A stretch of DNA of 31,075 bases from positions 1 through 31,075 of the forward strand of contig JBIKTS010000001.1 in the NCBI GenBank assembly GCA_044347985.1, read 5' to 3'. The notes under the pieces are model-generated. The model did not search any database. It was not told the DNA's origin and was given only the letters and a program-made list of their open reading frames with translations. How positions within the stretch are numbered: the stretch's first letter is position 1; every line of letters starts with the position of its first letter. Below are positions 23,953-29,502 of this stretch, in pieces. Both the position numbers and the translations under genes were made by a program. The stretch is from Candidatus Babeliales bacterium. Its GTDB lineage: Bacteria; Babelota; Babeliae; Babelales; JAUPTZ01.

Positions 23953-25884
23953 TTATGATTCAGGCGCTTGCCGAGACGCTTGCGTAAGAGCTCCCACAAA
24001 CGCACTACGAAGAGGTGACCAGCGAGTTCGTCTTGCGATTTCTTCATCAAACAAACGACGAGTTGTTCCTTCTTGGTCAGTTTCAGCAAATTCAGCACTC
24101 TTAATGAGAGCATCAACAGTCATCCCACAACTGTCAGGAATGTCAACGCGCGCATTGTTCTCGAGTAAAAATTTTATCACTTGTTCATCTTCATATGGCA
24201 TTACCTGATGAAGCACTGTGCTCTGATATGAAGAATATTGCGAAACAAGATTAATATCGGCTCCGCGCGTTAAAAGAAAAGAAGCAAGAGCAAAGCGCTC
24301 ATCAAGAGACATTCTTAAACGATCATTAAAAATTTTCATAAAAGGAGAAAACCCTTTTTTATTATACCCATCAACATAAGCACCTCGATCAAGCAGACAC
24401 TGCATGACCGCTATTTTATGTGGGATACTTGATCGTATAACAGCATGCAAAGGAGTATCTCCCTCAGAATCATGTGCGTTAGGATTTATACCAGCATCCA
24501 GTAACCTGTTTAATGTCGCAAACCAATTAGGATCACGGTACACCCGACTAACAATATAATCAGTCACTTCAGAAACCGTAACTATAGCACCTTTTGCTTG
24601 TAGTTCAGCTACCAAGGTATCTTGAACTCCTCTTCTGAGAGCTTCACACAAAGATCCTCGAAGATCATTAGCGCCATTATCTAAAAGAAATCTCACTGCT
24701 TCCAAATCAGCAGATCCAACACAATATGCCAATAAAGGCAACTCAGAAAGAAATATCCCTCCCTGATTGATATCAGCTCCTGCATCTAATAATAATTGAG
24801 CCAACCCTACATTGGATGGTTTTTTATAAGCTTCATCAAAACCTAATGCTATAGCCAAAAGAGAAACATTTCGATCAGGAATATTGACCTGAGCGCCACG
24901 ATCCAACAATAACCTAACCATTGCTTCGTTATTGTTTTCTAGAGCATAGCGCAAAGGATCTCCAATCTCACAACTTCCATTCACTGACATACCAGAATCA
25001 AGAAGAGCGGTCACTGTATCTATATCATTTCTCTTCACAGCAACTTCCAATTGTGGCTCAGGCGGCAGTGGAGGAAAATGAGACGCTAAACGATCTAAAA
25101 CTGCGTCTGCTATCGCACTCAAAGCGGCTGTATGTGGATCAGAAGGATCTCGACTCCCAAGCATTCTAGACATTATCTGTGAACGAGATTGATCTACCCA
25201 GCTACCCTGGTTCAGGTTAGTAACAGTGCCTGACGCCGCTCCATCAACTGTTGGCCCTGGCTGAAATGCTGTATCCCTTAATGGTTGCACAGGAACTGGA
25301 TCAACTAACGATAAAGGCATGTTTGGACACGCAACCACCAATAACCCCGGCATCTCTGCGTGCACACGTTGAGATGCATCAAAAACCTCACGTTTACCTG
25401 TATGCAATAATGGCAACTCAGATGCATTAGATAATCGCCTCATCTGAGCACGTGCAGCAACTATCGCCAGTGTCATGATTGCAGCGCTTCCTAAACAAAT
25501 CCCCCACTTTGCACTAACACTCAACCCCCTGTTTCTACGCGTAAGCTGATTAAGCAGTAGCTGAATCGACACCTTTGTATCGTTTGCAAGTGACATCTTG
25601 ACTAAATCTTTCTTTAACTGAAGGCACTGACGTTTAAAATTTTTTGGTGGCCGCCCCCCTTTAAAATCCATCCAATCAATCAGTTTATAAAGTGCCTCAA
25701 GAACTTTTTGCGCAGCCTGAGTACCTTCTGCTTCTAATTTTTCAATTGCCACCTCTGATAATTGCTGCAATTGAGGATTTTTTGCCATAATTGAGCCAGG
25801 CATAAACTCCACAGTAGTGCTTTGAATTGAACCTATCGACAGGGCTGCAACAATACCCACAATACTTATTCTCATGTAATTCAT
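23953..25884 (-). CDS. Ankyrin-repeat protein with signal peptide, family linker domain and membrane anchor
   Basis: About nine ankyrin-like repeats (LLLDRGAQVN, LLLDAGADIN, GDTPLHAV, FLLTRGADIN). N-terminal GSIMAKNPQ module. Confidence 0.9.
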   Translation of the reverse strand: MNYMRISIVGIVAALSIGSIQSTTVEFMPGSIMAKNPQLQQLSEVAIEKLEAEGTQAAQKVLEALYKLIDWMDFKGGRPPKNFKRQCLQLKKDLVKMSLANDTKVSIQLLLNQLTRRNRGLSVSAKWGICLGSAAIMTLAIVAARAQMRRLSNASELPLLHTGKREVFDASQRVHAEMPGLLVVACPNMPLSLVDPVPVQPLRDTAFQPGPTVDGAASGTVTNLNQGSWVDQSRSQIMSRMLGSRDPSDPHTAALSAIADAVLDRLASHFPPLPPEPQLEVAVKRNDIDTVTALLDSGMSVNGSCEIGDPLRYALENNNEAMVRLLLDRGAQVNIPDRNVSLLAIALGFDEAYKKPSNVGLAQLLLDAGADINQGGIFLSELPLLAYCVGSADLEAVRFLLDNGANDLRGSLCEALRRGVQDTLVAELQAKGAIVTVSEVTDYIVSRVYRDPNWFATLNRLLDAGINPNAHDSEGDTPLHAVIRSSIPHKIAVMQCLLDRGAYVDGYNKKGFSPFMKIFNDRLRMSLDERFALASFLLTRGADINLVSQYSSYQSTVLHQVMPYEDEQVIKFLLENNARVDIPDSCGMTVDALIKSAEFAETDQEGTTRRLFDEEIARRTRWSPLRSAFVGALTQASRQAPES

Positions 25885-25918
25885 ATGTTATCCAATAATA
25901 AAAATGCTATCTCAATGG

Positions 25919-27581: not shown

Positions 27582-27594
27582 TAAGTCCCTCGAA

Positions 27595-29502
27595 CTATCG
27601 TGTTGATGCATGAGGGGTTATGTCAATAACCATAGTAGAAATATTATCACGGCTACGTCTTTCAAAAGCAGCCATAGTTATTGCTCGGGCAATTTGCTGA
27701 CAGGTCTGAGCTTCTCCTTTTTGTAAGCGAACTATATCAGCAACTTGCTCGCTCGATAAAACATCCCACACTCCATCACATGCAAGTACAACGTATTGCA
27801 TTTTTGTATCAGCAGACAGTGTAATAATGTCAGGAATATTGCTCACCGGATAATCCGTAACGCCTGTGCCATCTGCAAGAGTAATGCTGCGCGATTTTGT
27901 ATCATTTTTCGCACGAAAATCCCCGAATGAACGCGAGACAGATAAGCCTTCGATACGACGAGTAGTATCACCGCCGCCACCCGTAGCAATCAACCCTGAA
28001 GTAATTAAGGCAATTCTCGCTTGCTCATGTTCACATGATGGCTTATGATCAAGTGACTGCGCAATAACAATACAATTGTTATCTAATACAATTACACGCG
28101 AATCTCCTAGATTTACTAACTTAATACTACCATCAGCTAAAAAAAGTGCTACCACAGCTGTTGACCCGCTGGGTACGTTAGCATCTTTCAAACTAGCGTC
28201 AAACTCAATCCATAACTTTTGAATAACAGAATCATTCATTAAATCAGCGCCAAGAGCTACTTTATCAAAAACAAATAATGAAAATTTTTCTGCCAATATT
28301 TTTGCAACATAATCTCCACCATGACCATCAAAAACACCAAATATTCCTATATTAAGCTCAGAGTTATAATGCGCCACACATGCATCTTCCATCTCGGGTC
28401 TCTTGCCTTGAATCTCACTACACCCGACATAATTCACAAACTTACCAAGCATAGAGAGCTGGAGCGGAAAACTGATTTCTTGTTTCATACATTGTTCTTG
28501 CAAGTCGCGAATGTCTGATGGATCATCTAGAAATTTTTTAATGTCATTAACAGAGAGTTTATATGTATGCTCGCCTTTGTAGCTCGATGCTATTGATGTG
28601 ACGCGACAACTCGTTCCGGTTAGTCGGGTATTAAAACTAATTAAAACACTACCACTCTGGCTTGTAAGACAAGCATCTTGAATGTAACCCCCAGCGCTGA
28701 TGTTGAAACATATAAAATCTTCATCAGTGACATTCTCAAGACTCGCTAATAATGTAAAAAACTCGTTAACGCTTAAGGATTTTCCTCCTGGAGTTTTTAA
28801 GGTTTGACACCGCATCAAGAAAACAGCTAAACCCGGGCTCATTGGTGTTTCATCAGAAAAGCGAACGATTCTTTCAGGCTCTTTAATAGTTTGAGTATTG
28901 GAAAAAGGAGGAATAGTTAAAGATGACAACCCAAGGGATAAATCATCGCGTTCTTCAGGTTCTTTAATACTTGGATGGTCTAAAGATGGCAACACAGTCA
29001 ATGAGGGCTCAGGGCATAATTCTTCAGAAGAACGATTCCGAGTGCGACGTAACCGCGTTATCAAACATGCTCCCGCAATAATCGCTGCAGTCGCCGCAAC
29101 ACCCACCATACCAATACCAACTTTTGCCGATTCACTTAATCCAGGTTTAAAAAATGCATAAATCGCTTTTTTTACAAAAAAATCAACTTCGCTGCTTTCT
29201 TTCAGTGCTTTTAAAAACACTTGCAATGCTTTTTTATCTGCTGCCGTCAGTCTCTTGTTTTGTAATACGTTATCTGCATGCCTCACAAAAAACTTTTTTA
29301 AATCAGGATCTTGCTTCTCAAGCATCATAGAAATAAATTCATAGTCACGCATCTGCTTTTTTGATGACTTTTTATAAGTGCCATCACGCAGTCCGATGCT
29401 CAAAAATGCATCTTCTTTCGCATCAAGAATCACACTTATGGATCCAATAGCCATGACAAAAAATATGTAAAAACGGCATGATTTTTTTATAATCGTATTC
29501 AC
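27595..29502 (-). CDS. PP2C (PPM) Ser/Thr phosphatase fused to signal peptide and membrane anchor
   Basis: QGKRPEMED, VFDGHGG, GSTAV, NLGDSR, DHKP, LSVSRSFGD, LACDGVWDV, DNIS. GTG start. Confidence 0.92.
   Translation of the reverse strand: MNTIIKKSCRFYIFFVMAIGSISVILDAKEDAFLSIGLRDGTYKKSSKKQMRDYEFISMMLEKQDPDLKKFFVRHADNVLQNKRLTAADKKALQVFLKALKESSEVDFFVKKAIYAFFKPGLSESAKVGIGMVGVAATAAIIAGACLITRLRRTRNRSSEELCPEPSLTVLPSLDHPSIKEPEERDDLSLGLSSLTIPPFSNTQTIKEPERIVRFSDETPMSPGLAVFLMRCQTLKTPGGKSLSVNEFFTLLASLENVTDEDFICFNISAGGYIQDACLTSQSGSVLISFNTRLTGTSCRVTSIASSYKGEHTYKLSVNDIKKFLDDPSDIRDLQEQCMKQEISFPLQLSMLGKFVNYVGCSEIQGKRPEMEDACVAHYNSELNIGIFGVFDGHGGDYVAKILAEKFSLFVFDKVALGADLMNDSVIQKLWIEFDASLKDANVPSGSTAVVALFLADGSIKLVNLGDSRVIVLDNNCIVIAQSLDHKPSCEHEQARIALITSGLIATGGGGDTTRRIEGLSVSRSFGDFRAKNDTKSRSITLADGTGVTDYPVSNIPDIITLSADTKMQYVVLACDGVWDVLSSEQVADIVRLQKGEAQTCQQIARAITMAAFERRSRDNISTMVIDITPHASTR

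Follow-up and report, generated by a model that had tools for sequence, protein, structure and literature searches.

The 31,075 nt of DNA analyzed here, referred to as the window, contain a tandem array of four genes (A to D) that encode proteins with a common N-terminal platform and unrelated C-terminal cargoes. This platform comprises a Sec-type signal and a basic module of four helices (about 100 amino acids, aa), then the motif GLSxGAKxGIG, and then an Ala/Gly helix that is followed by basic residues. Profile searches confirmed that the proteins belong to a new family, which is larger than first noted and has at least 19 copies in the window genome. They are lineage-specific, fast-expanding single-pass membrane proteins, which an obligate intracellular bacterium of the Dependentiae type probably uses where it meets its protist host. 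Our favored explanation, to which we assign a probability of about one half, is that the array proteins are host-membrane-anchored effectors, similar to Toxoplasma GRA14 or to the chlamydial Inc proteins.

An earlier, sequence-only reading of the window had described four co-oriented genes with one layout, and open reading frames (ORFs) A to D were indeed found, all on the minus strand. Their positions in the window and those of their parts are as follows.

23953-25884, minus strand: gene A, 643 aa, with ankyrin cargo
25819-25884, minus strand: signal-like segment of gene A (aa 1-22)
25507-25818, minus strand: basic N-module of gene A (aa 23-126), with GSIMAK at 25780-25797
25447-25527, minus strand: GLSVSAKWGI and Ala/Gly-rich membrane helix of gene A (aa 120-146)
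25048-25446, minus strand: disordered linker of gene A (aa 147-279)
24055-25047, minus strand: ankyrin repeats of gene A (about aa 280-610)
25919-26731, minus strand: gene B, 270 aa from the ATG, or 280 aa if the upstream GTG at 26761 is used
26660-26731, minus strand: signal of gene B (aa 1-24)
26351-26659, minus strand: N-module of gene B (aa 25-127), net charge +17
26279-26350, minus strand: membrane helix of gene B (aa 128-151)
25922-26278, minus strand: Gly/Ser/Pro-rich tail of gene B (aa 152-270), with NPVY at 25985-25996
26877-27464, minus strand: gene C, the minimal member, 195 aa
27384-27464, minus strand: signal of gene C (aa 1-27)
27066-27383, minus strand: N-module of gene C (aa 28-133), four helices in the AlphaFold2 model
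27000-27065, minus strand: membrane helix of gene C (aa 134-155)
26880-26999, minus strand: Pro-rich tail of gene C, 40 aa, with PSAP at 26949-26960 and PPGY at 26901-26912
27595-29502, minus strand: gene D, 635 aa, with a GTG start
29419-29502, minus strand: signal of gene D (aa 1-28)
29119-29418, minus strand: N-module of gene D, second subtype (aa 29-128)
29056-29142, minus strand: GLSESAKVGI and membrane helix of gene D (aa 121-149)
28429-29055, minus strand: linker of gene D (aa 150-358)
27640-28428, minus strand: eukaryote-type PP2C of gene D (aa 359-621)

The motifs that had been quoted for the array could all be retrieved. GSIMAK, GSLLAK, and GSVLAK are present in A, B, and C, respectively, as are LIDWMDFKGGR, LSEWVLLKKRK, and LADWACLKKGK, and A and D have a pre-anchor motif in common (GLSVSAKWGI in A, GLSESAKVGI in D). 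The single Ala/Gly-rich hydrophobic segment per protein lies about 100-135 aa past the signal-like segment. Of the C-termini, which had been described as unrelated, Pfam yielded ankyrin repeats for A, PP2C for D, and nothing for B or C. None of the four N-termini had a Pfam match.

Pairwise BLASTP comparison of the first 170 aa gave E values of 3e-12 for B and C, 3e-7 for A and C, and 6e-5 for A and B, and these alignments indicate that the three proteins have a homologous N-terminal region. The comparisons of D with A and of D with B were not significant (0.08 and 5.3). D belongs, along with paralogs on contigs C1 and C5, to a second module subtype. A hidden Markov model (HMM) of A, B, and C matched paralogs on contigs C72 (8e-8), C9 (1e-5), and C1 (6e-3), and a six-member HMM that contained one member of D's subtype scored D with 1.3e-8; the iterated HMM included the hydrophobic segments, and drift is possible. 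Aligned with hhalign, the soluble parts of both subtypes were collinear over 80 columns, but, with an E value of 0.003 and a probability of 10%, the alignment was too weak to establish by itself a direct homology of the D-type and A/B/C-type soluble modules. The subtypes are tied together by the pre-anchor motif GLSxGAKxGIG, the Ala/Gly helix, the equal spacing, and intermediate paralogs, and homology of D to the A/B/C module is probable, though not proven. The view that all four genes share the N-module thus stood for A, B, and C, which align significantly, whereas D is joined to them mainly via the pre-anchor motif and the intermediates.

The window genome (G000) comprises 0.86 Mb (858 kb) in 121 contigs and is 84% complete. 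A profile of 17 modules without their signal peptides (A3) matched 19 loci in this genome, with E values from 1e-13 to 1e-40, and inspection by eye added one more ankyrin protein of this layout, a divergent one on contig C110. Because many family copies break off at contig ends, the true copy number is probably higher. Further tandem pairs are located on contigs C1, C13, and C78, and three copies adjoin each other in the sister genome G002. The family was found in all five genomes of the genus (19, 13, 3, 2, and 1 matches). Outside the genus, 40 relatives and a 120-genome sample of the phylum yielded only marginal matches to the anchor region (1e-4 to 1e-5). In a set of 1.84 billion representative proteins, the profile found 77 at E <=1e-3 and 49 at E <=1e-10. 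Judged by these searches, the family hardly extends beyond a single genus. The sister genome G001 lacks the array at the syntenic site, and the copy number varies from 1 to 19 within the genus, a pattern of accessory genes with a fast turnover that is typical of host-interaction genes. No published description of the family was found in the literature searched; the profile (alignment A3/A5) annotates about 50-77 otherwise hypothetical proteins. The HMM search and listing of C-terminal domains that the sequence-only reading had proposed recovered an expanded paralog family with several cargo classes, across which the modular layout of signal, conserved N-module, anchor, and variable cargo holds.

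The likeness of these proteins might also have arisen by chance, from unrelated proteins that each combine a signal and a helix, or it might be an assembly artifact. The weak direct similarity of D to the other three proteins would fit with this, as would the tendency of HMM iteration to drift when hydrophobic segments are included. However, A, B, and C show significant similarity in their soluble parts, and the signal-free profile found not only the 19 loci but also relatives in every genome of the genus. Moreover, contigs of one lake-water run (X1, which is perhaps the source sample of the window itself) tiled the array without differences, and contigs of three further lake-water runs covered parts of it with few differences. 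This explanation is largely refuted, and we consider it to be highly improbable.

The platform was characterized from its N-terminus onward. The proteins start with one to three basic residues and a hydrophobic stretch of 15-18 residues, with small residues at positions -1 and -3; signal peptides were judged by our own heuristic. The following 85-110 residues are strongly basic, with an isoelectric point of about 10 and a net charge of +4 to +17 in 14 of the 17 modules and of 0 to +2 in the other three; the mean net charge of other signal-bearing ORFs was +0.3 ± 5.6. For the gene C module, AlphaFold2 predicted from an alignment of 52 sequences four helices, with pLDDT values of 86-96 over residues 41-130, and then the membrane helix. 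Foldseek searches against PDB and AFDB clusters gave no match to the module at E < 0.001, and the ESM Atlas gave no usable one. With VIA-align, the module reached Z scores of 7.1-8.0 to McpZ, McpS, and TorS and equally to Tsi6, designed bundles, and viral proteins; Z scores below about 13 are common among helical bundles. Nearly all relatives with a Met start (53 of 56) have a membrane helix, mostly 100-135 residues past the signal-like stretch. The family membrane segment consists of 42% Ala and Gly, compared with 19% in other membrane helices of the window genome. Its Kyte-Doolittle value is 1.6-2.6, and Lys/Arg residues follow it. A crude Hessa sum yielded a family mean of 0.66 kcal/mol versus 1.69 kcal/mol for 286 helices of polytopic proteins from the window genome, values that are only rough because the scale was used without position terms. 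This comparison speaks against an anchor that is too weakly hydrophobic to stop transfer. The linkers behind the helix contain 35-64% Gly, Ser, Pro, Ala, and Thr.

The cargo classes of the family are ankyrin repeats, eukaryote-type PP2Cs, a kinase-like orphan domain, PPDK_N, and short Pro-rich tails, which are joined via disordered linkers. The C-terminal parts of the relatives with a Met start vary in length from 33 to 1379 residues. Among 63 relatives scanned, 12 had ankyrin repeats and five had a PP2C, and most were without a Pfam domain. Gene A matched Ank_2 (PF12796) with an E value of 6.1e-22 (78 bits, cut-off 27) and Ank (PF00023) with 4.7e-19, above the gathering score. Gene D matched PF00481 with 2.5e-41 over profile positions 3-255 of 255, and all 52 PDB sequences with E < 1e-5 were eukaryotic (PPM1A/B/K/H, plant or protist PP2C), which identifies its cargo by sequence comparison as a eukaryote-type PP2C. 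Every PP2C locus of the window genome with an assembled N-terminus has the module; the double-PP2C contig C111 is truncated, and its full-length look-alike P0010 has the module as well. The PP2C domains of the paralogs are 28-43% identical and have diverged about as much as the N-modules, so that no sign of a swap by recent cargo shuffling was detected.

Two paralogs on contig C1 end with an orphan domain (residues 290-595 of L009, 340-2127, and about residues 540-812 of L010), for which only three matches were found in 5.8 billion sequences. Its conserved motifs recall the catalytic and metal-binding loops of kinases. The AlphaFold2 model had a pLDDT of 67, and the top 50 Foldseek matches in PDB were all protein or lipid kinases, albeit weak ones (E values of 6e-3 to 8e-2, TM scores of 0.2-0.3). 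The domain may be a new atypical kinase-like cargo. The sole family member of G001 (L122, 882-6077) is a protein of 1731 aa that contains the N-module and the helix, two basic repeats resembling nuclear localization signals, a PPDK_N ATP-grasp domain (2.8e-24), and a long uncharacterized region. A search of all five genomes of the genus, including two with a completeness of 97% or more, yielded no Hanks kinase (PF00069), whereas PP2C is present in four of them.

P(T/S)AP and PPxY are late-domain motifs by which viruses recruit ESCRT. The tail of gene C contains PSAP and PPGY, and both occurred together in 0.25% of composition-preserving shuffles. The tail of gene B contains NPVY, a motif of the NPxY type, which appeared in 1.4% of shuffles. 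P(T/S)APP is kept in all four C-type proteins, which stem from different assemblies and have tails that are otherwise poorly conserved; between P0014 and P0033, the P(T/S)APP region is the only strong conserved island. For each tail, the motif arises in 0.8-2.7% of composition-preserving shuffles. The C-type tails contain it at a density of 18 per 1000 aa versus 0.023 genome-wide, a difference of about 800-fold, and, because the four tails are related, these are not independent occurrences. In B-type tails, a second conserved island of approximately W-x-x-(L/F)-R-R-L-P-S-P-P-T-G was observed, which is present in B and P0015 and, in a looser form, in P0056.

The predicted localization of the same cargo types was also analyzed in proteins outside the family. 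In about 9 of 13 non-family ankyrin ORFs of the window genome, the repeats are located directly behind a signal-like segment, and ankyrin domains are thus generally predicted to be exported in this organism. For C. destructans, a fraction of 78% has been reported for the corresponding arrangement (PMC6561590). Two large ankyrin-PP2C proteins, L121 2292-6752 in G001 and L123 5653-9465 in G004, have different N-anchors and a C-terminus that is predicted to be exported; one anchor consists of a signal-like segment and two Ala/Gly-rich helices, and the other one is a single signal-anchor. The tail motifs, the lack of a Hanks kinase in the genus, and the predicted export of these ankyrin and PP2C paralogs are indirect, sequence-derived signs that point to a C-terminus facing the eukaryotic cytosol.

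If the array proteins are host-membrane-anchored effectors, they would end as type I membrane proteins in a membrane that borders the host cytosol, that is, the vacuole or another host membrane. The N-module would remain in the lumen, facing the bacterium, and the cargo or tail would be directed towards the host cytosol. There, the cargo would bind or dephosphorylate host proteins, and the C-type tail would recruit ESCRT-I or Nedd4-type factors. The weak point of this scheme is how the proteins would get from the envelope of the bacterium into the host membrane. By standard Sec rules, the anchor would be held in the inner membrane. Delivery would thus need either an escape from stop-transfer and subsequent type II secretion, or a fusion of vesicles or membranes in which the orientation is kept.

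Several observations weigh against this explanation. The sequence-only reading had pointed to a topology paradox, in that stop-transfer would leave the cargo in the bacterial cytoplasm, and the paradox is genuine: the anchor helix is competent and Lys/Arg residues follow it, so that plain Sec insertion predicts a cytoplasmic cargo. By the positive-inside rule, the basic N-module would favor the cytosolic side, and this also applies to a host membrane. The analysis revealed no known machinery for extracting proteins of this kind. The tail motifs were picked after the tails had been inspected, and a family-wide test for linear-motif enrichment in the first 150 aa past the anchor was non-significant except for PPxY (P = 0.02). 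In addition, the sequence stems from lake-water metagenomes. Lastly, the kinase-like cargo could itself partner the PP2Cs inside the bacterium.

Such a partnership would be part of a different arrangement, in which the proteins are receptor-like inner-membrane proteins. After cleavage of the signal, the module would act as a periplasmic sensor or docking module, the helix would stop transfer, and the cytoplasmic cargoes would form a phospho-signaling set that responds to the host environment. This is what the standard topology predicts from the N-terminal positive charge, the small residues at -1 and -3, the competent helix, and the basic residues behind it. The kinase-like and PP2C cargoes could form a self-contained system, and bacterial membrane-anchored PP2Cs do exist (PstP and chlamydial RsbU). 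Periplasmic four-helix sensors (McpS, McpZ, and TorS, Z scores of 7.1-8.0) are among the best structural neighbors of the module, but these matches only reach the level of any helical bundle. Furthermore, disordered linkers of 80-330 aa are ill suited to signal transmission, and members with a Pro-rich tail alone (33-120 aa) are without an output domain. A copy number of 1-19 in one genus without a core member, the eukaryote-type PP2C, the conserved P(T/S)APP, which has no known role in the bacterial cytoplasm, and the predicted export of the same cargo classes in paralogs also argue against a receptor-like function. Taking both sides into account, we regard this alternative as tentative, with a chance of being correct that is substantial and yet clearly below even.

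The candidate routes for the presumed effectors are limited. A type II secretion cluster is encoded on contig C38 (L116, 1509-10302), which contains two GspD-type secretins (788 and 1028 aa), a GspL/PilM-like protein, and a PDZ-containing GspC. Another secretin is encoded on contig C19 (L117, 4606-6114), so that this genome of about 1 Mb has three in total. As markers of type IV, III, and VI secretion, respectively, VirB4 (PF03135), FHIPEP (PF00771), and TssC were not found in G000, G001, and G003 (the latter two being 97-98% complete), although the PF03135 profile might miss a very divergent DotO-type protein and type I systems were not searched. For a substrate of Sec and type II secretion, the family has the signal peptide (by our heuristic) and the genome has the type II cluster, but the stop-transfer helix is at variance with a soluble periplasmic mature protein. 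The interpretation offered by the sequence-only reading was therefore only partly borne out: the modular family with swappable cargo was upheld and expanded, whereas the N-module may or may not be a tag for export or host-membrane insertion. The helix is not marginal, and no delivery route for a cytoplasmic cargo was found.

A further possibility is that the proteins are surface- or vesicle-borne. They would stay on the envelope, or would be shed with outer-inner membrane vesicles, and act after vesicle fusion or lysis, and the module would serve in sorting or clustering. Vesicle budding has been described early in C. destructans infection (PMC6561590). By topological reasoning, an inner-membrane vesicle that fuses with the vacuole would keep the N-terminus luminal and the C-terminus cytosolic, and the small-xxx-small Ala/Gly helix together with the basic module could favor clustering or the binding of acidic lipids. 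Yet inner-membrane proteins are not normal vesicle cargo, and structure prediction gave no sign of homo-oligomerization: two copies of gene C residues 28-165 (N-module and helix) yielded a homodimer score of 0.01, which by itself speaks neither for nor against a dimer. We thus consider a vesicle-borne function to be improbable.

A more far-reaching version of the favored explanation is that the platform represents a previously unknown route that places bacterial single-pass proteins in a host membrane with their C-termini in the host cytosol, and does so without type III, IV, or VI systems, with Sec and type II secretion as the only routes present in the phylum. In one subfamily, viral-type late domains would then bring host ESCRT to the parasite compartment. 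As a whole, we regard this proposal as possible but rather unlikely.

The surroundings of the array gave hints of its origin. Two direct repeats of 97 nt, which are 87% identical, bracket gene D as a unit of 2054 bp.

27485-27581: copy 1 of the direct repeat, 97 nt, between genes C and D, with residual final codons and stop codon of the beta-barrel gene
29539-29635: copy 2 of the direct repeat, 97 nt, overlapping the beta-barrel gene (29600-31075) at its true 3' end

Because copy 1 has kept the last codons and the stop codon of the beta-barrel gene, gene D looks inserted, or duplicated by recombination, between the beta-barrel gene and gene C. Neither a variant lacking D nor any other supported structural variant was seen across the array in contigs from the four lake-water runs. 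In the sister genome G001, gltX, a gene for a DUF4143 ATPase, and the beta-barrel gene adjoin each other, and this syntenic site is devoid of the array. The beta-barrel gene (29600-31075; counterpart L033 5965-7416) encodes a probable outer-membrane protein with a weak match to Alginate_exp (0.046); it is syntenic with gltX and the DUF4143 ATPase gene in the sister genome and forms the boundary of the inserted array. Scans for promoters and terminators gave no excess over shuffled sequence.

The organism of the window is very probably a member of the Dependentiae. This assignment follows from the 120-genome phylum sample, which is a single order of genomes of about 1 Mb, and from the two gspD genes in one type II cluster; two gspD genes per genome have been reported for all TM6 genomes (Yeoh et al., PMC4776705). 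A 16S gene was not found in G000, G001, or G003, and the relatives found in a scan with gltX bore a mixture of taxon labels. The nearest public relative (CAYSBJ010000001.1, L033), the GltX of which is 70% identical and which the genome search placed in the same genus, is labeled 'uncultured Pseudomonadota bacterium', a label that may be wrong. Dependentiae are widespread uncultured parasites of protists that have many eukaryote-like proteins and none of the classical injection machines. The family offers a handle on how such proteins reach host targets, because it has a conserved and recognizable platform, a minimal representative of 195 aa (gene C), and, with P(T/S)APP, a candidate for a host-facing motif. 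If the cargo stays inside the bacterium, a genome of only 1 Mb would contain receptor-like phosphatases, kinases, and scaffolds in unusually expanded numbers.

Lastly, the family was compared with known systems. RxLR effectors of oomycetes and PEXEL proteins of Plasmodium also combine a signal and a conserved N-terminal delivery region with variable effector C-termini, and they form expanded, clustered families. However, they belong to eukaryotic pathogens, they have a short delivery motif instead of a folded module and a helix, and there is no homology. Bacterial membrane-anchored PP2Cs (PstP, chlamydial RsbU) and four-helix periplasmic sensors (McpS and TorS type) resemble the array proteins in having a periplasmic bundle, a helix, and a cytoplasmic signaling domain, and the module superposes on such sensors with Z scores of 7-8, a fold match that is non-specific. 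The sensors usually have two flanking helices and HAMP domains or short linkers, and the PP2Cs are of the bacterial type, in contrast to the long disordered linkers and the eukaryote-type PP2C found here. The signal-bearing ankyrin proteins of other Dependentiae (C. destructans and Babela; PMC6561590, PMC4776705) have a Sec signal in front of eukaryote-like repeats and are presumed to be exported via Sec and type II secretion, but they are without the conserved basic module and the internal helix.

With the chlamydial Inc proteins, the family shares a large, fast-evolving set of paralogs in an intracellular bacterium, an N-proximal anchor, and variable C-termini, which in Inc proteins face the host. 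In agreement with the sequence-only reading, which had called the two not homologous, the searches revealed no relation to Inc or to families in Pfam, PDB, or AFDB. Inc proteins have a bilobed two-helix domain and are exported by type III secretion, whereas in the array proteins a single helix follows a cleavable Sec-type signal and the conserved module of about 100 aa. GRA14 and GRA64 belong to a eukaryotic parasite with dense granules and have no sequence or domain homology to the array family. They travel along the secretory route of the parasite itself and are not retained in its membranes (PMC8700025), whereas the proteins of the array, being made by a diderm bacterium, would have to pass two bacterial membranes. 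GRA14 is a signal-bearing single-pass protein of the vacuole membrane with its C-terminus in the host cytosol and with motifs of the late-domain type (PMC8700025). The order of a signal, a luminal N-terminal part, one helix, and a cytosolic C-terminal part with P(T/S)AP-type motifs that recruit ESCRT (PMC8700025) would recur in the array family, in which the tail motifs are candidates for such a role. If the cargo indeed faces the host cytosol, the family would be a bacterial counterpart of GRA14 and Inc and would represent a new delivery logic.

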